Source of the DNA: an uncultured Bacilli bacterium
Lineage (GTDB): Bacteria > Bacillota_I > Bacilli_A > RF39 > UBA660
Direction of reading: 5' to 3'
Assembly (NCBI GenBank): GCA_947591575.1
Contig: CANQDI010000003.1
Coordinates: 1 to 36,156, forward strand
DNA length: 36,156 bases
Shown one piece after another: positions 248 through 11,885 of the stretch (position 1 is its first letter; every line of letters starts with the position of its first letter). The notes below the pieces were generated by a model, which worked only from the letters and a program-made list of their open reading frames with translations, made no database searches and was not told the DNA's origin. The translations under genes and the position numbers were made by a program.

Positions 248-514
248 CTACTTCTTATTTGTTATTAATATTAACTCACTACCATTTCTAATATTTGTAT
301 TGATGATAATTTCATTATTATCATACACTTTACTGTCATCCTTGTTCATTAGAATATAATCTTCTTGAATATCTAATGCTACTCCTGTTAAATCAGAAAT
401 TGATTTAATGAGCATTTTTTTAATTTTCCAAACAATCTCATTAACAGGAATAAAGATATCATAAGTTTGCCCAAGCTCTGGTAGGATTAATTTTATAATG
501 ACCTTATTTTTCAT
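248..514 (-). CDS. esaB: YukD/EsaB-like ubiquitin-fold T7SSb accessory protein
   Basis: 88 aa; pattern 'TYDIFIP...IRNGSELILI' resembles YukD/EsaB; overlaps the essC stop by 11 nt. Confidence 0.7.
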   Translation of the reverse strand: MKNKVIIKLILPELGQTYDIFIPVNEIVWKIKKMLIKSISDLTGVALDIQEDYILMNKDDSKVYDNNEIIINTNIRNGSELILITNKK

Positions 515-3500
515 CTAAATCATCCTCCTGAGTCACAAAATCAATGAGTCTACATAAGGTGCCTACACTTTCATTGATGACATATCCCATATCATTTTTA
601 TATTCTTTTTGCATGTCTCTATTAATTGTTGTTAAATGGAATAAACTTTGATCAGATAATCCTTTTCCTATCCATAGACCATCATTCAGACTAAAGTCAT
701 TTGTAAACCATTCCTCAAAGCTAAATGATTTAATCTTAGAAGGTTCATCCATCAAAACAATACTTGCTTTTTCATATTCTTTTAATTTACTGATTAATTC
801 AGATATTTTAGTGGAATCAATTAATTTATTGATTAATTTATTTAATCCATAAACAAATATAACTCCTCTCATATCACTATTACTTTCTTTTAATTGGTCA
901 ATATAATGAATGATGGCATCTATTTTTTCATCGAATTGATCTATATAGTAGTTTGGCATTTTTTGTTGATCAATCGACAATTGTTTTAATGGATCCAGTA
1001 CGACTATAAATAGATTTTTCATATGTAGCAAAACTGTCAGCAAACTCATAAAGAACTTATTCATATTATTAAGTTTATTCGATGAAATAAGATAGCCACA
1101 ATTTGATAACAAATCTATTTTCATCACTTCTAAGTCTTTTTTACTAATTCCAATAGGTATATCATTTAAATCTGTAATTTCTTTTTGAATATGTTCCATT
1201 CTAACAATACTTGGTAATGTTTGAATTTGTTCTGCACTGATTGGATTAATTGTTTTTTGTTGATCAATGAAAATAAGTATTTTTTCATTCAATTCTTCTT
1301 CATTGGACGTAATTTTAGCTGTTTGAAATTCATGAATATCATCAATAAAACAAAGTCCTCTACCAAAGATATCCCTAGGAACTAATATTTTTTTACTATT
1401 GAATACAGTTTGATAATCGCTGCTATCTTTTAATTTGAATGCATAACTAGTTTGACAATCTTGAGAAATTTTACTATGAACAGAATTAATTGCATTAGCA
1501 GTAATTAAAAAGATAACTCCATATCTTTCTGAATCTCTAATAAGATCAGAAATATCTTCTACAAAATCTGGATTAGCATCATAAATAGAATCATAATTAT
1601 TAAAGATAACCACTTTTAATGGAAGTTTTTGAGTACTATTATGAATATAGTTTATATATTCACCGCCATAATCAGCAAAGAGTCGTTTTCTCTGTTGTAG
1701 TTCTTCTCGAATGGTTTTTAATAAATTATGATATTTTTCGTCATCTGAAGCATATACAATACCTCCAATATGTGGTAATTTTTCAAATCTACGTAATGAT
1801 TCAGATCCGTAATCAACAATATAAAAATTCACTTCATTTACTCGATGATTTTTAGCTGCGGAATAAATGAGGGTACTAAGTAGATTTTCTTTTTCGCTAC
1901 CATCATTTCCATAAATTATTGTATTTCCATTTTCTAAATAGTTATAGATGACACATCCTTGCGTCTGTCTTTCTGGAGCATCATATTCTCCTACAATAGA
2001 TTGAACATGATACGGTTCTACTGGAATTCTATATTTTTGTTCTATCTGTTCTACTAAAATATTATCTTGAATGTTTTCTAACCATAACCGTTTAGCATAT
2101 TGACCTGTTTTTTTTGCAACATCAATAATTACTTTCATAATTGCTGAGATTTGTTCTCCTTCAGCTACTACTTTTCGATTGGTTCCTGCTTGAATGCTTT
2201 TTACCGGGATACCATTATCATCTATAAAATTAATACTTTTATCCACTTGCTTTTCAATTTTATCTGATGGATAATATTTGGCCCCACACCAACCAGATTG
2301 TCCTAATACAAAATATTCATCATATCCAACTTGTAAGAAAAATCTACCTGTTTGCTTTAATGATGCTGCATCCGGTTTTTTTAACATCTCTTTACTATCT
2401 GCCTCATCTTGTACTTTTAAACAAACATGAAATTTTGCATTAGACCAAATTTGGTCTGTAACAACACCACTTGGTTTCTGTGTTGCTAAGATTAAATGAA
2501 TACCTAAACTACGTCCAATACGGGCAATACTAATTAGATTATCCATAAAATCTGGTTGTTGACTTTTTAATTCAGCAAATTCATCACATACGATAAACAA
2601 GTGTGGGATAGCTTCTTCTAATTTTCCTTCTTTATAAAATTTTTGGTATTTATAAATATCGATTGTACTTTCTCCAAGTTTATCTCTTGCCTCGTTAAAC
2701 TTCATCTGTCTTCTTTTTACTTCACTATCAATACTTACAAGGGTTCTATCCATCTCTGCTTTATCTAAGTTTGTAATCGTTCCTGCAAGATGAGGAAGAA
2801 AAATGCCAGTCATTTTGTTTTCAAAGGCAAAAGCAAGTCCTCCTCCTTTATAATCAATAAGAATAAAAGAAACATCTTCTGGACTATAATTAATTGCCAT
2901 AGAAAGAATATACGTAATAATAAATTCCGATTTACCACTACCTGTCATACCTGCAATTAATCCATGAGGTCCATGTGCTTTTTCATGCAAATCCAAATAT
3001 AATAATTGTCCGTCTTCATCTATTCCTACTTCTGCTTTTAAACTGGTTGTTGCATCATTGGTTTTCCAACGATTCAAAATATTTAATTGTTCAACTCTAC
3101 CTACTTTTTCCATTTCCAAAAAATTAATAGACTCTGGTAGCATTTTTAATCCTTCTTCAAATTCAATAGGAATATTAGATAATATTTTGGTAATTTGCAT
3201 CATATCAATTTGTTGTTGTAGTTCATCTTTAAAAGAGATTTGTTCTTGTTTTTCAAATGAATTTTTGAGTACTCCAGAGACATTCGTTCCCAATGTAATG
3301 AAGTTATTACATTTACTAGGAAGTTTACTGATTCTTTCTTCTAATATGACCACACTAAATCCTAAATCTACATCTGTCTCTGTAATGGTTTTAATAAATT
3401 CAAACCGTTTTACTGCATCATAATTATCAATAATAATTAAAAAATGTGGTTTAAATGAAGATACTTTTTTTTCTTCATAGGAACTTAATCGACTATTGAC

Positions 3501-5063
3501 TTCGCCATTTAATACTTCTGCAAGTATCTTCGTACTTTCTTCATCAGATGCAAAAAAACGGAAGCTTTTATTGTTCGTAAATGTATGATTCAAATACTTC
3601 ATATATTCCCAATTATCTTTATTTTTATGATCTGTAAAAATAGCAAATTTTAAATCCTCATAACTATAGAAAGATAATAATTGAACAAGCATATTATTCA
3701 TGAAAGTAGTCTTTTGGTTTCCCATAATAGCAGTAATTCTATTTTCATAAAAAGAATATCCAATTGGAACATTTTCAATATATTTAAATTCTTGTACCAA
3801 TTGATCTGCATTCTTTCTTAAAACACTTTCTTCTACAGAAAAATCTTCTTCAGCATAAGATACTTTTACATTTAATAACTCATTACCAACACCAATTCTT
3901 ACAACTAAAAAATCACTTTGATCAATTCTTTTATCCCACAAACCAACTGATCTATTCATAATATTTTTTAAACATTCTTCTGTTGTCAACAAATTTTCAA
4001 CAAGAATTTCTTTTTGTAATCTAGCAATTTCTGTTAATTCTGTTCTCTTTTCATTTAAATAAATATTATATTTTTTAATCATATCTTTATTTTTTTTCTT
4101 TTTTAATCTCTTGTTATAAATTCTAGTTAGAAAAGGCCATAGTAACATAGACATTAGCATTGCACCACTTGTTACCAAAGAAGGCCAAGTATCTTCCATT
4201 GTATCTTTTCCATCAGAAATTCTCATAAGTATACTCAATAATGTCACTGCTGAAGTAATTCCCATTGTTAACATAGGACCTACTGTAAGAATGGCTGGTA
4301 ATTCATCATTTCCTTCTGGTTTTGGTGGAGAACTAATTTTGAGTTCTGCTTCTTTTACCATTCTTCTTAATCTAGGAGATTTTGAAAAATAATTATTTTT
4401 ATTATATAAATCTATATCTTTAATTTCAATTTCTTGTGGTTCACTATTTGTTAAAAATACTTTCTTATGTATTTTTGATTGTTCTTCGTTAAGAATTACT
4501 CTGTTTCCACATTTGTTGATGAGAAGAACGCCATTTAAGAAAATAATTTTTAGTCCATAAAGATTAATTTCATCACTATTTTGGATGACATAATTTTGTA
4601 GAAGTAAACGATTATTATTAATATATAAACAAGTTTCTTTACTAATCGTTAATAATAATTGTTGATTTTGATAATGAATCGTAATTACAAATCCATTTAG
4701 ATAAGGACAATTATAGATAATAGAATTTCCATTTGTATTGCCAATGGATAAATTGATCTTTTCATCATAGGAATAAATGCTAAAATCATTCTCATATAAA
4801 TCTGTTACGTATACTAAATAACTTTTATTATTTTTTTGGATGACATAAAATGCATTGTTTTTTAAAGCAATATCAGGAATAAAAGCGTTGGTTCCTACAA
4901 TTTTAGATGCTTCCGTAGAATACATGAACCATTCATTATCCTTTGCTACTACATTAATTAATTTACTTTCATCATCTTCAAAATCAAAACCAAAATTACC
5001 AGACACTTCTTTTGGCAATGTATAAGTTAAAAGTTTATCAGGCAAAAATAAATAAATCTTCAT
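504..5063 (-). CDS. essC: Type VII secretion FtsK/SpoIIIE ATPase EssC/YukB
   Basis: N-terminal FHA-like region, FSKSPR motif, two TM helices, GPHGLIAGMTGSGKSE Walker A, IVCDEFAEL Walker B, RIGRSLGIHLILATQKPSG, then degenerate ATPase domains 2 and 3. Start placed at ATG 5063 (GGAGG RBS) instead of 5075. Confidence 0.92.
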   Translation of the reverse strand: MKIYLFLPDKLLTYTLPKEVSGNFGFDFEDDESKLINVVAKDNEWFMYSTEASKIVGTNAFIPDIALKNNAFYVIQKNNKSYLVYVTDLYENDFSIYSYDEKINLSIGNTNGNSIIYNCPYLNGFVITIHYQNQQLLLTISKETCLYINNNRLLLQNYVIQNSDEINLYGLKIIFLNGVLLINKCGNRVILNEEQSKIHKKVFLTNSEPQEIEIKDIDLYNKNNYFSKSPRLRRMVKEAELKISSPPKPEGNDELPAILTVGPMLTMGITSAVTLLSILMRISDGKDTMEDTWPSLVTSGAMLMSMLLWPFLTRIYNKRLKKKKNKDMIKKYNIYLNEKRTELTEIARLQKEILVENLLTTEECLKNIMNRSVGLWDKRIDQSDFLVVRIGVGNELLNVKVSYAEEDFSVEESVLRKNADQLVQEFKYIENVPIGYSFYENRITAIMGNQKTTFMNNMLVQLLSFYSYEDLKFAIFTDHKNKDNWEYMKYLNHTFTNNKSFRFFASDEESTKILAEVLNGEVNSRLSSYEEKKVSSFKPHFLIIIDNYDAVKRFEFIKTITETDVDLGFSVVILEERISKLPSKCNNFITLGTNVSGVLKNSFEKQEQISFKDELQQQIDMMQITKILSNIPIEFEEGLKMLPESINFLEMEKVGRVEQLNILNRWKTNDATTSLKAEVGIDEDGQLLYLDLHEKAHGPHGLIAGMTGSGKSEFIITYILSMAINYSPEDVSFILIDYKGGGLAFAFENKMTGIFLPHLAGTITNLDKAEMDRTLVSIDSEVKRRQMKFNEARDKLGESTIDIYKYQKFYKEGKLEEAIPHLFIVCDEFAELKSQQPDFMDNLISIARIGRSLGIHLILATQKPSGVVTDQIWSNAKFHVCLKVQDEADSKEMLKKPDAASLKQTGRFFLQVGYDEYFVLGQSGWCGAKYYPSDKIEKQVDKSINFIDDNGIPVKSIQAGTNRKVVAEGEQISAIMKVIIDVAKKTGQYAKRLWLENIQDNILVEQIEQKYRIPVEPYHVQSIVGEYDAPERQTQGCVIYNYLENGNTIIYGNDGSEKENLLSTLIYSAAKNHRVNEVNFYIVDYGSESLRRFEKLPHIGGIVYASDDEKYHNLLKTIREELQQRKRLFADYGGEYINYIHNSTQKLPLKVVIFNNYDSIYDANPDFVEDISDLIRDSERYGVIFLITANAINSVHSKISQDCQTSYAFKLKDSSDYQTVFNSKKILVPRDIFGRGLCFIDDIHEFQTAKITSNEEELNEKILIFIDQQKTINPISAEQIQTLPSIVRMEHIQKEITDLNDIPIGISKKDLEVMKIDLLSNCGYLISSNKLNNMNKFFMSLLTVLLHMKNLFIVVLDPLKQLSIDQQKMPNYYIDQFDEKIDAIIHYIDQLKESNSDMRGVIFVYGLNKLINKLIDSTKISELISKLKEYEKASIVLMDEPSKIKSFSFEEWFTNDFSLNDGLWIGKGLSDQSLFHLTTINRDMQKEYKNDMGYVINESVGTLCRLIDFVTQEDDLDEK

Positions 5064-5129
5064 GGGCCCCTCCATATTCTACTTATTTAGTATATCATAA
5101 AATGAGAAAAGAGATAGGTCATAAGAAGA

Positions 5130-5158
5130 AAAAAATGTAATTTTTTGTTACATTTTTT
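5130..5158 (-). terminator. AT-rich hairpin (probable terminator) between the small helical genes and essC
   Basis: AAAAAATGTAA-7nt-TTACATTTTTT; essC has its own extended -10 (TGATATACT, ~5090-5098). Confidence 0.45.
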
Positions 5159-5164
5159 CATATT

Positions 5165-5407
5165 TCATAATTTACTATTGATTCTTGGGATAATAGTATT
5201 ATCAATTTCTTTGGAAATACTTACAATATCATTTTGCATTTTATTCATTCTTTCAAGCTCTGGAATTTCATGATCTAAAAGGATAGAATTTTTTAATTGG
5301 ACTTTTAAATCATTATAGAGCGTATTTAATTGATATAATTGATTTTTAATATTGTACATATTCCGATATAAATTTCGATATTTATTTTTTATATATTCAT
5401 CATTCAT
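5165..5407 (-). CDS. Small helical protein, putative T7SS substrate or partner
   Basis: 80 aa amphipathic helix-turn-helix pattern; coupled to the upstream gene; adjacent to essC. Confidence 0.55.
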   Translation of the reverse strand: MNDEYIKNKYRNLYRNMYNIKNQLYQLNTLYNDLKVQLKNSILLDHEIPELERMNKMQNDIVSISKEIDNTIIPRINSKL

Positions 5408-5408
5408 A

Positions 5409-5708
5409 TTATAAATCCCTTTTTATTCTAGAAAATTTTTGTTCTGTTTGTTTTCTTACTGTTTTATATTTTAACACAGTCTTTTTAAATATTGTAATAT
5501 AGTCATTGTGAATGCGATGGATTGTATTAAATTTGCGATTAAAATTGCATTGCGTTTCATATAAAAGAGTACTATTTTTACTTGTATAATCATACTGCAT
5601 ATCTCTCATCAATCTTTTTAAAGTTTCAAAATTGATCGATTCATCTCTTATATACATTTCTAATTTTTCAATAGTCTTTAATAATTTTTCTTCATCAATA
5701 TAGTTCAT
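5409..5708 (-). CDS. Divergent WXG100-like protein
   Basis: 99 aa with two long helices; starts 'YIDEEKL'; central YTS where WxG normally lies; T7SS context. Confidence 0.55.
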   Translation of the reverse strand: MNYIDEEKLLKTIEKLEMYIRDESINFETLKRLMRDMQYDYTSKNSTLLYETQCNFNRKFNTIHRIHNDYITIFKKTVLKYKTVRKQTEQKFSRIKRDL

Positions 5709-5716
5709 AAATCACC

Positions 5717-6277
5717 TTATATATATTCACCAATATTGATATCTTTTAAAATTTCAATATGGATTTTATTATTTTTTGATTTGACTGTTCGTTCAGTTTC
5801 TTCTACTAAATTAAAAATATTTTTTATATTTTGCTTCATATTAATGCTACTATCTCTCATTTTTATTAATTTTTGTTTTTCTTGATTTAAAAAATAAGCT
5901 TCATTCGGACAAAAGCTTACATCTAATCCTTGGTAATAGGAAATAATATTATTTAGTTGTTGAATATAGTGATCAATTGCGCTAATAACATCATTCCTAT
6001 TTTCTACTTTTATTTTCACTTTTGATCCTAAAGATTGATATTGATCGATGATATACTGATATACATTGATCATCTTATTTAATTCCTGTATATTTTTATC
6101 AATTTTATGTCGTTTTTCTTCTACACAGCTAAAAAACCTATTAGAATATTTATCATTCCAATAAGAAGAGCTTTGTATTAGATGGTGATAGATATTGATA
6201 TAATTATCATCATATTGATTTACTTTCTTTCGTAACTCAGTTAAATTTATTTTTAAGTTAGAAATATTTATTTCCAT
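5717..6277 (-). CDS. WXG100/LXG-like helical protein, about two domains long
   Basis: 186 aa; 'SSYWNDKYSNRFF' at the WxG position (~residue 40); helical throughout; AAGGTG RBS. Confidence 0.55.
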   Translation of the reverse strand: MEINISNLKINLTELRKKVNQYDDNYINIYHHLIQSSSYWNDKYSNRFFSCVEEKRHKIDKNIQELNKMINVYQYIIDQYQSLGSKVKIKVENRNDVISAIDHYIQQLNNIISYYQGLDVSFCPNEAYFLNQEKQKLIKMRDSSINMKQNIKNIFNLVEETERTVKSKNNKIHIEILKDINIGEYI

Positions 6278-6294
6278 CGATAATCACCTTATCA

Positions 6295-6347
6295 TTTTCC
6301 AAATATACAACAATTAAAGTTACATTAATTGTCATATATTTGGAAAA
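6295..6347 (-). other. 23-bp RNA stem-loop inside the T7SS substrate operon
   Basis: Minus-strand arms TTTTCCAAATATATGACAATTAA / TTAATTGTTGTATATTTGGAAAA, fully paired with two G-U pairs, 7-nt loop. Confidence 0.7.
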
Positions 6348-6362
6348 AGATTTCCAAATTTC

Positions 6363-7007
6363 TTATTCATTTGCTGAAAAAGCTTGTGATACTTTTCCTT
6401 CAAGATCACCATAATTAGATACAGTATCTTTCAATGCTTGTTGCGTTGTATCAGTTAACTCCTTAGTAGCTTGTGAAACTTTGCTCTTAATTGTACTAAG
6501 TGAATTAATTAAGCTTTGTGCTTGATCACCACCGACAAAACCACAACTTTGTACAGCTCTTTGTGCTTGTGATAAAGCACTTGTAGCAGATGATTCAATC
6601 GTTTTTAATTTAGCAATAACTGTTCCAGCATTAGCATAATCAATACCTCTTACTCCACCAATATTTTCTTTAATACTACTCGTATTAATTCTCACATTTT
6701 TTGGTGAAAAAGATACACGACTATATGAAGTTCCTGTTCTTTCAGCCCAAGCTTGAGCAGCACTATTCATAGATGCTACTACAGAACTAAAAATATTATC
6801 TGATGATGTTAATAGTGAATCTACAGCTGGTTTAAATGAATTTCCAAAGAAAGTTTGTGCTTCTTTACATGCCCATTTATCAGCCATCCCTTTCACAAAT
6901 TGATTTTGCATATTTGTATATAATGCTGTCATTAAACTGTCATATGCTTTAATTACTGCATTAATGGATGTCCTTACTTGTGACGGATTAAAACCTGTTA
7001 ATGCCAT
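6363..7007 (-). CDS. Tandem WXG100-like protein, putative major T7SS substrate
   Basis: 214 aa, Ala/Ser-rich; two ~100-aa helical hairpins with turns KWACKEA and GFVGGDQ; C-terminal YGDLE matches YxxxD/E. Confidence 0.6.
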   Translation of the reverse strand: MALTGFNPSQVRTSINAVIKAYDSLMTALYTNMQNQFVKGMADKWACKEAQTFFGNSFKPAVDSLLTSSDNIFSSVVASMNSAAQAWAERTGTSYSRVSFSPKNVRINTSSIKENIGGVRGIDYANAGTVIAKLKTIESSATSALSQAQRAVQSCGFVGGDQAQSLINSLSTIKSKVSQATKELTDTTQQALKDTVSNYGDLEGKVSQAFSANE

Positions 7008-7152
7008 TTTTTATCTCCTACCTTTCCTAGTTTAGTAGATCTATTCTACTTAATTTGATTATAGATTAGATAAAGTGTAAAATTCAAGCAATGTAAGATC
7101 ATTTGACACTTTAGGACAGTTTTTCCTTTTGCAACGGTCTTTTTCTCTTCGC

Positions 7153-7181
7153 TTGTAGAATAATAAAATTTAGGCTATAAT
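7153..7181 (+). promoter_or_regulatory. Sigma-A-type promoter of the murJ-like gene
   Basis: TTGTAG-17nt-TATAAT. Confidence 0.55.
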
Positions 7182-7210
7182 AAAAATAGAATTTTAAAGT
7201 TGGTGATGTA

Positions 7211-8845
7211 ATGAAAAAAGATTCCTTTATTAAGGGAGCAATGATTTCGACGATTTGTATTGTATTAAGTAAAATCTTAGGAATTATCTATGTGATTCCT
7301 TTTCATTCGATTATAGGAACGAGTGGGAGAGCACTTTATGGTTATGCTTATAATGTATATATGCTTTTTCTACAATTTTCTACGGTAGGAATTCCACTTG
7401 CGATTAGTAAAATGATTAGTGAATATCATTCTTTAGGATACGAAGATGCAAAACGAAGAACATATCGTATTGCACTTCAAATTACTTTTATCATGGCTAT
7501 TTTATCAACAGTGATTCTCTTTATTAGCGCACCAATGATTGCAGAGGCGATTATTGGTGGTGTAAATGGTGGAAATACCAAAGAAGATATTACCTTCGTA
7601 TTGCGAGTTTCAACAACAGCAATTCTCATCTGTACTATGCTAAGTGGAATGAGAGGATACCTACAAGGTCATAAATATATTACCCCATCTTCTATTAGTC
7701 AGGTCATTGAACAATTGGTAAGAGTAATTATTATTATCTTTGGAAGTTATATCGCTATACAATTATGGGGAACAAAAGAAGCTGTTGGAATTGCAATCTT
7801 TGGTGCTACTGCCGGAGCGATTGTTGCTTTCTTCTATCTTGAGAAAAAAATGAAGGAAGAAAGAAAAAAAGAAAAAGAGAAGAAAATTCTAGAAGAAGAG
7901 AAAAAAATATCAAATCAATACCTTTTCAAACAGTTAATTCGTTATACAATACCATTTGTCATTGTTTCTATTGCAGTTCCACTTTATAATACAATTGATA
8001 TGTTTAGCATTGTAAAACCGCTCATAAAATACACATCACTCACTACTCAAGATGCTGAAACTGTCCTTGCAATTATTACAACTTGGGGAGCAAAATTAAA
8101 TGTCATTGTCACTGCGATTGCATCTGGTTTAGTCGTTTCTGTTTTACCTAATATTACCAGTGATTTTATAAAGAAGAAGGAAAAAGAAGTCAATCGTAAA
8201 ATCAACAAAACTTTACAAATTATTATCTACTTTGTACTGCCCATGGTCGTTGGTCTTTCCTTCTTAGCAGAACCTGTTTGGTGTGTTTTCTACGATCGAA
8301 GTCATTTAGGAGTTCTTGTTTTTGCTTATAGTATCATAACCGCTTTTTTTTATTCCCTGTTCTTAAATCTACATACTATTTTGCAAGCAATTGATCATCA
8401 TAAAGCTGCAAATAGAGCTATTTTACTAGGACTTCTTACCAAACTCATTTTAACAGTTCCATCCATTCCACTTTTCGCCAAAATAGGCATTCCTGCTTAT
8501 TATGGTCCTATCACTGTTACCATTATTGCTTATTTAATCCCAATGATTGTCAGTATCTATGACCTAAAGAAAAGCCTTCACACTTCTTTCCAGGATACGA
8601 TTAAAAAAGCAGGAATTAGTGCTTTGGCTTGTTTGATCATGTTAGTGGTACTTTCAAGTTTAAAACTTCTTATTCCTCTTTCTGGAAATCGTCTTTATTC
8701 TACATTCATCATTTGTATTTATGCAGGAATAGGAGCATTGATTTACTTTTTTATTACTATCAAAACAAACGTTTTTTCTTCCATTTTTGGATGTAATTTA
8801 CGAGATTTTATGAAGAAAAAATTACGTAAAGTAAAAAGGAATTGA
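7211..8845 (+). CDS. MOP-family flippase (YtgP/MurJ/SpoVB-like polysaccharide biosynthesis protein)
   Basis: About 14 TM segments; SKILGIIYVIPF, GIPLAISK, RGYLQG and SQVIEQ motifs. Confidence 0.85.
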   Translation: MKKDSFIKGAMISTICIVLSKILGIIYVIPFHSIIGTSGRALYGYAYNVYMLFLQFSTVGIPLAISKMISEYHSLGYEDAKRRTYRIALQITFIMAILSTVILFISAPMIAEAIIGGVNGGNTKEDITFVLRVSTTAILICTMLSGMRGYLQGHKYITPSSISQVIEQLVRVIIIIFGSYIAIQLWGTKEAVGIAIFGATAGAIVAFFYLEKKMKEERKKEKEKKILEEEKKISNQYLFKQLIRYTIPFVIVSIAVPLYNTIDMFSIVKPLIKYTSLTTQDAETVLAIITTWGAKLNVIVTAIASGLVVSVLPNITSDFIKKKEKEVNRKINKTLQIIIYFVLPMVVGLSFLAEPVWCVFYDRSHLGVLVFAYSIITAFFYSLFLNLHTILQAIDHHKAANRAILLGLLTKLILTVPSIPLFAKIGIPAYYGPITVTIIAYLIPMIVSIYDLKKSLHTSFQDTIKKAGISALACLIMLVVLSSLKLLIPLSGNRLYSTFIICIYAGIGALIYFFITIKTNVFSSIFGCNLRDFMKKKLRKVKRN

Positions 8846-8872: not shown

Positions 8873-10006
8873 TTACTTATTTGTTTCTAATTTGGAAAGC
8901 GTTATTTCTATCGTCTTTTCTTTTCCATCTCGAATATATTCTACTTCAATTGTTTCTCCTGGTTTATGGAAATACAATTCATAACGGAGATAAGCTGAGT
9001 TTTTGACTTTATTTCCAGCAATTTTCGTAATGACATCCCCTTTTTTTAAACCAGCTTTATCAGCGCCACTATTTTCTTCAACACCTGCGACTACTACACC
9101 TTGATCCATATCTTTAGAAATTGTAATACCTTCTCGATAAAGTGCTATCAAATCCGTCGTATTAATCATTGTAACACCTAACATTGGCCACTCAATTTCT
9201 TTTCCTTTTTCAAGGGTTTCTATATGACTTACTGCATATTCAATTGGAATTGCAAAGCCCATTCCTTCTACTTCTGTTTCAACTAATTTCATAGAATTAA
9301 TTCCAATCACTTCACCGTTTATATTGAAAAGAGGTCCACCCGAATTGCCTGGATTAATTGCTGCATCTGTTTGTAAAACTTTCATGACCCAATCCGTACT
9401 ACTTGAATTACTTGTACTGACACTTATCATACGATCTTTTCCTGACAGATGTCCTGTGGTAATACTTCCTCGATATTCATATCCAAGTGGAGACCCAATA
9501 GTAAATACAAAGTCACCTAATTTCGCATTTTCACTATTTCCAAGTGGAAGCGGTGTTAAGCTATCATTTTTATCAATTCGTAAAACAGCAATATCAATAT
9601 ATGTGTCTCCTCCTAATATAGTTGCTTTTATCTCTTCATCTTTTGAAGTAATAATTTTAACTTGATCTCCGCCTGCTACAACATGTTGATTGGTCATTAA
9701 ATACGTATATTTATCATCTTTTTTATAAGCAAAACCTGTTCCTGTCGATGTTAATTGATCATCTTTATAGGTTTGTACCAACACTACACCATCATATACT
9801 TTTTGAACGGAATCAGAAACACCACTTTCATCGACGACTACTTTCGTACAGTTTTTAGCACTACAAGTCGTTCCCATCGTAGTCGTAGTTGTTTCATTCG
9901 TTCCTCCTAATAGATTTCCACCATCTACAATTGCAAAGGTAAACACACCACCTATTACAAAAGAGATAATAATGGTCAATGCATTTTTTAGTCTTTCATT
10001 CTTCAT
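8873..10006 (-). CDS. htrA: HtrA/DegP-family serine protease (TM anchor, trypsin domain, PDZ)
   Basis: TNQHV (His), DIAVL (Asp), QTDAAINPGNSGGPL (Ser), C-terminal PDZ. Confidence 0.92.
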   Translation of the reverse strand: MKNERLKNALTIIISFVIGGVFTFAIVDGGNLLGGTNETTTTTMGTTCSAKNCTKVVVDESGVSDSVQKVYDGVVLVQTYKDDQLTSTGTGFAYKKDDKYTYLMTNQHVVAGGDQVKIITSKDEEIKATILGGDTYIDIAVLRIDKNDSLTPLPLGNSENAKLGDFVFTIGSPLGYEYRGSITTGHLSGKDRMISVSTSNSSSTDWVMKVLQTDAAINPGNSGGPLFNINGEVIGINSMKLVETEVEGMGFAIPIEYAVSHIETLEKGKEIEWPMLGVTMINTTDLIALYREGITISKDMDQGVVVAGVEENSGADKAGLKKGDVITKIAGNKVKNSAYLRYELYFHKPGETIEVEYIRDGKEKTIEITLSKLETNK

Positions 10007-10958
10007 TTAAATGACTCCTTTCTATATTGGCAAGATTCTTCCAATTGGCTGGAAATCCCATTCTTTCTAATATTTTAGTAATTGGGATTGTATTTAAATT
10101 ATATGTTAAATTATCAATATGTTCTTCTATTTCAAGGACAAATCCCTGAAATTCTTCTTTAGATAACATCTGCTTCATAATAAGAAACAAAGCAAATAAA
10201 TCATTTTTTCCATAAATATATTCATCCTCTTCTTTGGGAATTCCAAGAAGTTGGTGATACAGTGTATTATTAATTGATTTTTGTGTTTTATTATCATACA
10301 AAATATCTTCATGAGCACAAAGATTTCTATAATTTGCTAAAATAGGCAAATAGCTCGACATTGTTTCAATATCGATTCCATAGATATCACATATACTTTT
10401 TTGATCATCTATTTTCAAAATGGAAAAAAGCTCTCCTACAATGCCAAAAGATAAAACTTTTACAAGAATCCACAGTGGAATATACCCATAATTAGTAATA
10501 TAGTGTTTGGTAGCACTATGTTGTGCTCCATTTACTCGAATTTGTCTTTTCATTTTGTGAAGTAAGTCCGCAACTTGTCTTTGTTTTGTACGATCACTTG
10601 TAAAATTTTTCGCTTTTAAGTAATCTTTCTCACGATATCCATATTTTTTGGATAATTGATACGAAACAATAGATTTTATATTATTTTCGATGACAAGTAA
10701 GTGTTTAAAAATAACATTTCGAATTCTTCTATCAAATAGAAAGAGACTATATAATTCTAAAAAAGTTGTACCTTCTATAAACCTTTTTTCCTGTTTTGAT
10801 TGAAAAAATGGATAACGGTACCCATTTAAGAAAAAATAATTTTCTCTTAAAAGAATCTCTTTTGCATAATTTTCATCTTCTATTTTAAGTCCTTTATATT
10901 TTAAAATTTCAATTTGTTCATCTAAATTTTTAAAATGTTTTTCCATCATTTGCATCAC
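9996..10958 (-). CDS. Abi family (AbiD/AbiF-like) HEPN protein
   Basis: EQIEILK.KGL, NYFFLNGY, LFLFDRRIR, IPLWILVKVLSFG, and HEPN motif RNLCAH; true start probably ATG ~10949 after AGGTG. Confidence 0.8.
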   Translation of the reverse strand: MMQMMEKHFKNLDEQIEILKYKGLKIEDENYAKEILLRENYFFLNGYRYPFFQSKQEKRFIEGTTFLELYSLFLFDRRIRNVIFKHLLVIENNIKSIVSYQLSKKYGYREKDYLKAKNFTSDRTKQRQVADLLHKMKRQIRVNGAQHSATKHYITNYGYIPLWILVKVLSFGIVGELFSILKIDDQKSICDIYGIDIETMSSYLPILANYRNLCAHEDILYDNKTQKSINNTLYHQLLGIPKEEDEYIYGKNDLFALFLIMKQMLSKEEFQGFVLEIEEHIDNLTYNLNTIPITKILERMGFPANWKNLANIERSHLNEE

Positions 10959-11043: not shown

Positions 11044-11820
11044 TTATTCTTCTACTGGTAATTTATGGTATTCAAGACGGAGTTTATCAGCGACCGTCAC
11101 AATAAATTCTGAATTGGTAGGTTTTGCTTTATCAATATCAACACTATGTCCAAAAATCTCTTCCATTAGTTTCCAGTTACCTCGATTCCAAGATACTTCA
11201 ATGGCATGTCTAATAGCTCTTTCTACACGTGAAACCGTTGTATCAAACTTTTTAGCAATATCAGGGTATAATTCTTTGGTAATACCACCTACAATACCTG
11301 GATTCTCATAGATAACACTAATTCCTTCACGAATATACTGATATCCTTTAATATGAGAAGGAACTCCTAATTCATGCAGAATCTTCGTGATGGAGATTTG
11401 AAGGTTACTATGATATAAATCAAGGGAACCACCTTCTATTTTCTTATTTTTACTACATTCTAAAATTCTTTTCTCCAAGTCCATTAGTTCAAATGGTTTT
11501 AATATGAAATAACCGATTCCAAAACTAGAAACTTTTTGAATCATTTCTTGAGCATTATAAGAAGTTAAAACAATAACTTTCTTATGAATTCCCTTTTCTT
11601 TCATCTCCTCTAACACTGCAATACCATCTTTCTTTGGCATAATAAGGTCTAACAAAATGAGGTCATATTCATTTTCATTCTTTGTGATCTTTTCCAATCC
11701 TTCTACTCCATTATTTGCAGTAAGAGCAATTTCAATACTTGCGTGACTACTAAAATATTCCTTAACCATGTCGATGAGTTCTACATTATCATCGATCATT
11801 AAGACTTTTATTGTATCCAT
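11044..11820 (-). CDS. spo0A: Sporulation master response regulator Spo0A
   Basis: Receiver domain ([11 protein letters not shown]) plus Spo0A effector domain ([44 protein letters not shown]); start at 11820 preferred from RBS GGAGAAG. Confidence 0.97.
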
Positions 11821-11885
11821 TTCTTCTCCTTCCATTTTACTACACGCACTTACATTATATAACAGGAATTTCTAAAATGATAGAG

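Follow-up and report, generated by a model that had tools for sequence, protein, structure and literature searches.

At the left edge of the window, a stretch of 36,156 nt from the genome of an uncultured Bacilli bacterium (G000:C3:1-36156), lies a compact cluster of six genes that is a candidate for a reduced type VII secretion system (T7SS). The six open reading frames (ORFs) occupy positions 248-7007, are all intact and are all encoded on the minus strand: four genes for small helical proteins, here called F11, F3L, F3s and F10, are followed by essC and by an esaB-like gene (Table 1). The ORFs lie exactly as described in a first-pass annotation of the same sequence, which had interpreted the cluster as a stripped-down, rearranged T7SS without EssA, EssB or EsaA. 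The genome is a metagenome-assembled genome (MAG) of 950,836 bp in 73 contigs, with a completeness of 95.88% and a contamination of 1.86%.

Table 1. Features of the cluster and of the sequence adjoining it (positions in the window; aa, amino acids)
Feature	Position	Strand	Description
F11, 214 aa	6363-7007	minus	first of six head-to-tail ORFs
F3L, 186 aa	5717-6277	minus	second gene of cluster
F3s, 99 aa	5409-5708	minus	third gene of cluster
F10, 80 aa	5165-5407	minus	last of the helical gene set, precedes essC
EssC, 1523 aa	504-5075	minus	FtsK/SpoIIIE-type ATPase
esaB-like protein, 88 aa	248-514	minus	ORF start overlaps essC stop by 11 nt
AU-rich 23-bp hairpin	6291-6351	minus	between 214-aa and 186-aa genes; inverted-repeat self-match; lacks U-tract
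Divergent intergenic region	7008-7210		between 214-aa gene and murJ/spoVB-like gene; likely (predicted) promoter region of cluster
murJ/spoVB-like flippase gene	7211-8845	divergent from cluster	SpoVB/MurJ family

The EssC of the window is the sole EssC in the genome. It scores 926.4 bits against TIGR03928, the Firmicutes EssC equivalog (cut-off, 778.4 bits), over residues 227-1502, and its Pfam FtsK_SpoIIIE domains are matched with an E value of 5.9e-47. Two hydrophobic segments (residues ~259-287 and ~298-320) follow an N-terminus (residues 1-226) that resembles the forkhead-associated (FHA) domain, as the profile of its clade matches the FHA domains of GarA/OdhI in the PDB (E 2.7e-6; profile positions 110-180). 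The presumed phosphothreonine-binding positions are retained in the sister clade (G-K, S-x-x-H, and N); in the subclade of the window's EssC, FHA2 is degenerate, and the G-R and S-x-x-H phosphothreonine-binding motifs are gone. In the first ATPase domain (D1), both Walker A (GMTGSGKS at residue 709) and Walker B (at residue 826) are intact. The P-loop of D2 is degenerate (GNDGSEKE at residue 1056), and a pattern search found no P-loop in D3; the same search found a P-loop only in D1 in the two canonical EssC proteins examined, from Staphylococcus and Bacillus. A profile of the N-terminal 240 residues of the variant EssC (i.e., EssC of loci without EssB) matched 204 representative clusters at an E value of ≤1e-30 among 1.84 billion proteins. 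Many of these are fragments, and the full-length proteins among the best 150 matches have 1459-1579 aa.

The 88-aa protein encoded directly after essC is predicted, by its fold, to be a ubiquitin-like protein of the EsaB/YukD/TsxB type. Its AlphaFold model, built with 21 relatives, has a mean predicted local distance difference test (pLDDT) score of 92.5 and a beta-beta-alpha-beta-beta arrangement, i.e., a beta-grasp or ubiquitin fold. Foldseek returned 470 PDB matches for this model at an E value of ≤0.001, and the matches listed are all ubiquitin-like; the top query template modelling score (0.76) is to the ubiquitin-like domain of EccD5 from the ESX-5 T7SS. The C-terminus (...ITNKK) lacks Gly-Gly. 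A sequence profile of the esaB-like family retrieved nothing useful from the PDB.

Two of the four helical proteins resemble WXG100 proteins in profile comparisons. In hhalign comparisons with twenty Pfam-verified WXG100 proteins from the sister clade, F3L was matched through its N-terminal hairpin, tryptophan on tryptophan, with a probability of 91.4% (E 9.3e-7), and F3s was matched over its full length with a probability of 92.2% (E 5.9e-7). F3L consists of this WXG100-like hairpin and a helical C-terminal half; W40 and D42 are invariant, giving a W-x-D rather than a W-x-G motif. The Pfam WXG100 model (PF06013) found nothing at an E value of ≤1 in the whole genome, and the NCBIfam ESAT6_2 model matched F3s below its cut-off (E 0.0011). 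A hidden Markov model (HMM) of WXG100 proteins from the sister loci matched only F3s (E 3.1e-5) and F3L (E 0.0042) among the 4131 ORFs of the genome, and, conversely, an HMM of the F3s family retrieved the Pfam-verified WXG100 proteins of the sister loci. The F3s-family HMM also matched the C-terminal parts of fused F3L-F3s ORFs in two relatives (L008, 301 aa, residues 200-291; L170, 288 aa, residues 208-286), and fusion into one protein suggests that F3L and F3s act together. F3s is probably a WXG100-superfamily protein and the partner of F3L, to judge from these profile matches.

F11 is probably a secreted substrate of the WXG100 type. Its AlphaFold 2 model (pLDDT 91) consists of two helical hairpins in one chain (helices 8-42, 48-90, 124-154, and 160-199), with a tryptophan (W45) in the first turn that is invariant in seven sequences, although its motif is W-A-C and not W-x-G. 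In the ESM Atlas, 13 of 30 feature matches fall in clusters carrying PF06013 WXG100 (best score, 0.91), and in relatives the F11 gene adjoins essC-esaB. Other comparisons were uninformative: a homologue search gave 98 clusters with no informative name, the family sequence profile found nothing useful in the PDB, and Foldseek found nothing at an E value of ≤0.001. A wider fold search gave only generic four-helix bundles such as Dps and ferritin, and these fold matches assign F11 to no family. EspB was among the longest-aligned matches to the model (Z 8.3; 181 residues aligned), at a score below the noise level for helical models. The same one-chain layout occurs in a variant-type locus from a sample of the class Clostridia (L186), where the gene after esaB is a 219-aa ORF with a Pfam WXG100 match of 35.4 bits and two W-containing hairpin motifs. 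Homologues of F10 occupy the same position in L003, L006, L009, and L010, with 29-35% identity to the protein of the window; F10 found no support in the ESM Atlas and is unassigned to a family by these comparisons.

The first-pass annotation had noted that EssA, EssB, and EsaA are missing, and six-frame profile searches of the genome agree. PF10140 (YukC/EssB), PF10661 (EssA), and TIGR03929 (EsaA N-terminus) found nothing at an E value of ≤1, and TIGR03926 (EssB) and TIGR03062 (YhgE/Pip C-terminus) found nothing at an E value of ≤10. For TIGR03927 (EssA), a short and weak model that a very divergent EssA could escape, the best E value was 0.081; one weak match to it (E 0.24, contig C6) falls inside a PrkC-like kinase ORF. 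HMMs built from EssB, EsaA, EssA, EsaB, and EsxA of canonical systems in the same class gave a single match, of 11.7 bits, among the 4131 ORFs. In addition, phmmer searches of the genome with 22 components of other T7SS types found no convincing homologue beyond a PrkC/PrpC-like pair on contig C6 and HtrA; ORFs on contigs C1 and C15 were matched weakly (E 0.00077 to 3.2e-08).

The absence extends through the lineage. In a sample of 121 genomes from the order, nearly all from one family and 0.6-1.6 Mb in size, EssC exceeds the cut-off in 66 genomes (42 of 73 genera), some with two or three copies, and neither EssB nor the EsaA N-terminus exceeds its cut-off in any. Five weak EsaA matches (50-70 bits) include one in G020, which is not among the listed EssC-positive genomes. 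The EssA model gave marginal matches (24-27.5 bits) in six of the 121 genomes, confined to the C-terminal end of the profile and lying inside ORFs of 450-606 aa, and half of the six genomes are not among the listed EssC-positive ones. Controls showed that the profile searches are sensitive enough for EssB: YukC was found directly upstream of essC in all 22 canonical loci, from 22 genera including Staphylococcus, Streptococcus, Listeria, Bacillus, and Enterococcus (258-433 bits), and EssB was found beside canonical EssC in three of three genomes of the same class (172-269 bits) and in neither of two with variant EssC. The lack of EssB, EssA, and EsaA homologues therefore characterises the lineage and not just the bin.

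What does accompany EssC was determined from 66 essC locus rows, 65 of them distinct (the window, 21 related loci, 4 others, and 40 from the order sample, the last not a random choice but selected among the 66 positive genomes for score and for position on the contig). An esaB-like homologue is present in 62 of the 65 distinct loci: directly after essC in 54, directly before it in 4, and at a distance of 2-6.3 kb in 4. Of the three loci in which none was found, one is cut by a contig end. The next commonest neighbours are WXG100 genes (34/66 rows) and DUF4176 genes (19/66), and every other family occurs in ≤12 rows, those in 9-12 rows being synteny genes, e.g., those for HtrA and an Abi_2 protein. 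In the Pfam-scanned flanks there was no kinase, PP2C, stand-alone FHA protein, AAA+ ATPase, propeller, or Ig-like membrane protein beside essC; the flanks are all housekeeping (FtsY, enolase, CysRS, KsgA, YabG, Veg, SpoVG, acetate kinase, RNase III, TIM, and Spo0A), and relatives on long contigs carry the same genes between housekeeping genes. By gene content, the only machinery genes conserved throughout the lineage appear to be those for the FHA-bearing EssC with two transmembrane segments and for the EsaB/YukD-type ubiquitin-like protein, and the kinase, phosphatase, FHA-protein, EspG-like, and Ig-like components of other sampled subtypes seem to be absent as well.

The arrangement of the remaining genes is variable. 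The six-gene neighbourhood, whose conservation in related MAGs had been proposed as a check, occurs mid-contig in a genome of the same genus (G007), where essC, esaB, F11-like and F3L-like genes, and two small ORFs lie between a LysM protein gene and a murJ-like gene. The helical genes follow essC-esaB in 9 of the 10 loci with an F3L-family gene, and the window alone has them before essC. The description “rearranged” is therefore correct relative to T7SSb, but the order in the window is also atypical for its own clade. WXG100 genes also lie upstream in L144 and L151, and L012-L014 have essC-esaB alone. Four relatives carry a cargo-like module, consisting of DUF4176 and a protein of 700-1100 aa, between esaB and the helical genes, and one of these large proteins has a transglutaminase-like Cys-His-Asp region, recognised by eye; no toxin cargo was seen at the locus in the window. 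In the sister clade, a 305-aa protein (F7, 9/66 rows) and a protein of ∼520 aa (F8) are conserved beside essC. Both lack transmembrane segments, and F7 has no Pfam match, no PDB sequence match, and no homologue in the genome of the window.

Between the window and G007 (locus L039), MurJ is 79% identical, EssC is 53% identical, and the helical proteins are only 24-26% identical, showing that the locus diverges much faster than its surroundings. On these identities, the T7SS locus appears to evolve fast or to have been exchanged. A second essC type that differs greatly from this one (36-37% identity) is also present in genomes of the same genus (L040 and L041). Variant-type loci bear a range of taxonomic labels, “uncultured Muribaculaceae” (Bacteroidota) for L010 and Clostridium or Erysipelotrichaceae for others, and the NCBI MAG labels for this lineage look unreliable.

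Phylogenetic analysis placed the variant EssC apart from canonical EssC. The root of a first tree (40 rows; quick IQ-TREE search, LG+G4, 1470 columns) was placed on four EssC-like proteins that come from a neighbouring family and have no FHA domain. In this first tree, the 20 EssC rows whose loci lack EssB (Shimodaira-Hasegawa-like approximate likelihood ratio test [SH-aLRT] support, 99) were separate from 16 EssB-linked rows (SH-aLRT, 100). A second tree (48 rows) added 16 EssC loci from a sample of 350 genomes of the class Clostridia, with neighbours typed using Pfam; three of these are EssB types, and the rest are FHA-protein types, including a T7SSf-like one with AAA_31, a kinase/PP2C/FHA type, a kinase type, several others, and L186, the one locus of the variant type. 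Here, too, the 17 rows of the variant clade are monophyletic (SH-aLRT, 99), and the clade lies outside a group of 26 rows formed by the canonical clade and 11 other Clostridia types (SH-aLRT, 99). The exception is the kinase-linked EssC of L187, a weak sister of the variant clade (SH-aLRT, 92). The kinase/PP2C/FHA locus L182 falls away from the variant clade, and the T7SSf-like loci L181 and L183 group beside the canonical clade and not with the variant. The rows dropped (18 and 26 for the first and second trees, respectively) were all near-duplicates or extra canonical genera. EssC thus lies apart from ordinary T7SSb; nesting there was what the first-pass annotation had named as evidence against its view, and its proposal of a stripped-down subtype gains support from both the separate EssC clade and the lineage-wide absences.

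Other layouts were observed among the sampled loci. In L046, L047, L049, L051, and L052 of the neighbouring family (f9; not in L048), a compact T7SS-like cluster lies directly after nusA-ylxR-L7Ae-infB-rbfA. The f9 clusters contain two WXG100 genes (one in L048), a Big_2 protein of ∼700 aa, an FHA-less EssC-like ATPase of 1250-1300 aa, and an ORF of ∼80 aa. In the Clostridia-class loci L173 and L174, EssC scores as high as canonical EssC (1510-1529 bits), and the upstream gene encodes a 400-aa protein with a single transmembrane segment and an AMPK1_CBM/CBM_48 N-terminus instead of a Pfam-recognisable YukC. In L182, L184, and L185, an unannotated protein of 265-268 aa is encoded directly after essC and before YukD and WXG100 genes; no homologue of it was found in the variant loci or in the window's genome. 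No kinase or phosphatase was seen near L184 and L185, which may consequently represent another small T7SS layout.

As far as can be told, the gene order in the window is not an artefact of assembly. Contigs from separate assemblies of four runs on one rabbit-gut sample bridge the junction between the 80-aa gene and essC (X1 record 3, X3 record 20, and X4 record 30) and that between the 214-aa gene and the murJ-like gene (X2 record 16 and X4 record 32). This sample is probably the source sample of the MAG, and the bridging is therefore not independent biological support. Base 1 of the window is the contig end; contigs assembled from the sample extend 1.1-1.5 kb further left (X1 record 1 and X4 record 25). 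No second copy of the locus was found within the bin, and the left contig end could therefore not be joined to another contig. A joint in sample contigs between 5168 and 5648 was rejected as a real deletion form, as its shorter side spans only 21 letters. All four runs also have contigs that match the window only at 5148-5668, a segment with the whole 80-aa gene and most of the 99-aa gene, and whose sequence on either side is unlike that of the window; a second context for this segment, from a co-resident strain or a relative, is present in the sample and absent from the bin.

Within the divergent intergenic region, the minus strand carries a promoter-like site (TTGAAT-18-TATAAT) at 7087-7058, but such sites were no more frequent than expected by chance in this AT-rich DNA (50 found versus 53.7 expected from shuffles), and terminator calls in the window were also not above chance. 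The hairpin between the 214-aa and 186-aa genes, which the terminator scan passes over, has an RNA folding energy of −27.7 kcal/mol (z −5.2), and none of 200 shuffles folds as well. It is possibly an RNA processing or stability element and may give the 214-aa gene an expression level separate from that of the rest of the cluster. The divergent gene, annotated at first pass as murJ-like, does belong to the SpoVB/MurJ flippase family (Polysacc_synt, 97.9 bits; TIGR02900, 168 bits, and TIGR01695, 34 bits, both below cut-off). On the other side, the proposed separately promoted gene for a Sec-secreted protein can be upheld in part: an ORF with a signal-peptide-like start opens near base 82, some 165 nt past the 88-aa gene, and continues beyond the contig end, but the promoter claim finds no backing in the scan.

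Further from the cluster, an HtrA-like protease gene and an Abi_2 (abortive-infection-like) gene at 8873-10958 adjoin it, and this pair is also found downstream of essC clusters in 11-12 of the 66 rows; its recurrence indicates that the T7SS site is syntenic although the internal order differs. The 0.95-Mb genome keeps spo0A (11044-11835; Spo0A_C, 137 bits) and the SpoVB-like flippase gene, and YabG, Veg, and SpoVG genes adjoin essC in the relatives L005 and L041, which suggests that this lineage has kept sporulation genes in spite of its strong reduction.

The cluster is probably the intact T7SS locus of a distinct, lineage-wide, and reduced subtype in uncultured gut Bacilli that have small genomes (0.6-1.6 Mb) and are of the “Candidatus Onthousia” kind. 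We propose the following, by analogy with YukB-YukD of Bacillus subtilis. (i) EssC would oligomerise to form the membrane channel and its motor. (ii) The ubiquitin-like protein would be clasped between the FHA and DUF domains of EssC and stabilise the assembly. (iii) The small helical proteins would be exported as substrates or co-substrates, F11 as a double hairpin in one chain, the 186-aa and 99-aa proteins as a WXG100-like pair, and the 80-aa protein as a partner. (iv) Toxin-like cargo modules would be swapped in and out among relatives. We suggest, more tentatively, that the EssC oligomer and its ubiquitin-like clamp might alone constitute a complete protein-export channel of a Gram-positive cell, i.e., a natural minimal T7SS. 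EssB, EssA, and EsaA (and, in T7SSa, EccB/D/E) would then be accessories and not parts of the conduit.

Several points weigh against this interpretation. None of the five small proteins is recognised by Pfam or NCBIfam as a T7SS part; Pfam YukD (PF08817) matches neither the 88-aa protein nor anything in the genome at an E value of ≤1, and hhalign against WXG100 gave no profile support for F11 (probability, only 13%) or F10 (6%). F11 also has a Pfam Flagellin_C match above cut-off (33.5 bits); it lacks a Flagellin_N match, only 5 of its 98 homologue clusters have Flagellin_C, and its gene lies beside essC in relatives, and we therefore attribute the match to helical similarity and not to a flagellin. 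Both trees come from quick LG+G4 searches, the outgroup branches are long, and many rows have an unusual letter make-up; they cover the sampled loci without named T7SSc-j reference sequences. The locus lies 247 nt from a contig end in a 73-contig MAG. The absences rest on sequence profiles, which would miss any membrane partner that is encoded elsewhere and is non-homologous or very divergent, and retention of the FHA-like N-terminus without EssB hints at some partner.

This last point leads to the strongest alternative, that the system is a real reduced T7SS which is minimal only in its cluster, with one or more unrecognised, non-homologous partners spanning the membrane or wall encoded elsewhere. 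Every characterised or proposed T7SS subtype, as presented in the part of the survey by Garrett, Higginson & Palmer (2024, PMC11217815) drawn on here, has at least one further component; the FHA-like N-terminus, which docks the EssB pseudokinase in B. subtilis according to Oka et al. (2025, bioRxiv 10.1101/2025.01.24.634720), is retained; F7 and F8 are conserved beside essC in the sister clade; and a genome in 73 contigs could harbour such genes. Nevertheless, we consider a hidden partner rather unlikely: besides the esaB-like gene, no family occurs in more than 34 of the 66 rows, F7 and F8 have no transmembrane segments and F7 has no homologue in this genome, the FHA2 of the window has lost its GR and SxxH phosphothreonine-binding motifs, and genomes of 0.6-1.6 Mb leave little room for unlinked accessory genes.

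A relic or redeployed cluster, in which EssC no longer exports proteins, is considerably more doubtful. Loss of the other T7SSb parts, the condition of the D2 and D3 P-loops, and the lack of toxin cargo at this locus could be taken in its favour, but canonical EssC of Staphylococcus and Bacillus likewise shows a P-loop in D1 only, and here Walker A and B of D1 are intact. Further, all six ORFs are intact and EssC is full length, EssC exceeds the equivalog cut-off in more than half of the order sample (66/121, with multiple copies in some), esaB is coupled to essC in 58 of 65 loci, and relatives have cargo-like DUF4176 modules. An ordinary T7SSb whose essB, essA, and esaA lie past the contig end or went unassembled is scarcely credible and largely refuted, in spite of the contig end 247 nt after the esaB-like gene and a completeness of 95.9% and not 100%: such genes, which the first-pass annotation had conceded might lie beyond the left edge or elsewhere, were found neither in the genome nor in relatives with 10 kb on both sides (L010, L015-L023, and L039), EssB passes the cut-off in 0/121 order genomes, an 80-aa gene holds the place directly upstream of essC that essB holds in 22/22 canonical loci, and EssC is outside the EssB-linked clade.

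The channel former and the indispensable components of T7SSb are still debated. A distinct reduced subtype, found in 66 of 121 small genomes with EssC and a YukD-like protein as its only conserved machinery, would offer a simple test case and may show the smallest set of parts that such a secretion machine needs. It would also add uncultured gut Bacilli with reduced genomes, outside RefSeq-based surveys, to the known hosts of T7SS subtypes and indicate that strong genome reduction has spared T7SS-type export, which probably serves competition.

The closest point of reference is T7SSb (Ess of Staphylococcus aureus and Yuk/Yue of B. subtilis). Shared features are an EssC that passes TIGR03928, begins with an FHA-like region, and has two hydrophobic segments as well as FtsK-type ATPase domains; a small ubiquitin-like protein that is a chain of its own and does not end in Gly-Gly; and small WXG100-like helical proteins, with DUF4176-linked cargo alongside in relatives. 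In contrast to T7SSb, the window's genome and the order sample lack EssB, EssA, and EsaA, EssC belongs to a separate clade, and the Pfam YukD and WXG100 models miss the small proteins of the window. Gene order also differs: esxA-esaA-essA-esaB-essB-essC in T7SSb, essC-esaB-substrates in the variant clade, and substrates-essC-esaB in the window.

According to Oka et al. (bioRxiv 10.1101/2025.01.24.634720), YukB of B. subtilis encloses YukD with its FHA and DUF domains, which are stabilised by this contact, and a dimer of YukC (EssB) at the tip of FHA2 forms an outer crown. The first contact provides a mechanism for the two genes conserved here, and the equivalent of the YukD contact could be kept. 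The second has no counterpart, as YukC is absent, the FHA2 contact is without a partner, and the FHA2 of the window is degenerate. The double hairpin of F11 can be compared with EspB, a T7SSa substrate of ESX-1 with a fused PE/PPE-like four-helix structure, which also has two helical hairpins in one chain; the Z score is below the chance level for helical bundles and there is no sequence similarity, making this an analogy and not a case of membership.

A T7SS without EssA, EssB, and EsaA is not new as a general idea. According to the sections of the RefSeq-based survey (PMC11217815) considered here, T7SSc-j are all found in Bacillota, all lack these three proteins, and retain TsxC, mostly TsxB, and WXG100 proteins. 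FHA-bearing ATPases occur in T7SSd, e, f, i, and j; T7SSg is termed “relatively simple”; and T7SSi has no fixed tsxA, with WXG100 genes beside substrates. The same sections list, as additional parts, the kinase TsxD, the PPM phosphatase TsxF, the FHA/DUF6382 protein TsxJ, the AAA+ protein TsfV, the DUF5050 protein TsgL, the EspG-like TsxG, the Ig-like TsxI, and the small transmembrane proteins H and K. Each subtype has further conserved parts, and none is reported there as consisting of the ATPase, the ubiquitin-like protein, and WXG100 proteins alone.

None of these additional parts, as named in that text, was found beside essC in the scanned loci, and the window's own genome has only the PrkC/PrpC-like pair. 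T7SSc, d, e, and j are described as having the kinase TsxD with a PPM phosphatase or an FHA protein; no such genes lie in the scanned flanks, and the genome's only kinase/PP2C pair is on C6. For T7SSf, phmmer searches with the proteins of L181, L182, and L183 found neither a stand-alone FHA protein nor a convincing AAA_31 homologue (best AAA_31 match, E 0.00077, 16.8 bits, contig C1; DUF6382 was not searched by accession). T7SSg, set apart by its published description, has an FHA-less ATPase, the DUF5050 beta-propeller TsgL, and Tad genes, whereas the EssC of the window has an FHA-like N-terminus and the Pfam-scanned flanks have no propeller or Tad genes. T7SSh and T7SSi, likewise compared by description, have the EspG-like TsxG and the kinase-like TsxM, and nothing similar was found at the locus of the window or in its close clade. 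These comparisons, made with published descriptions and sampled loci, set the variant apart from T7SSc-g and T7SSj, and identity with one of the published subtypes as outlined in that text, T7SSi above all, is formally conceivable. In the literature searched, no such system is described for these uncultured Bacilli, nor is any subtype later than “j”; the supplements of PMC11217815, outside this search, might list relatives. We read the system as a further and simpler variant of the T7SS beyond T7SSc-j, in which an FHA-bearing EssC is accompanied by a ubiquitin-like protein and WXG100-like helical proteins.

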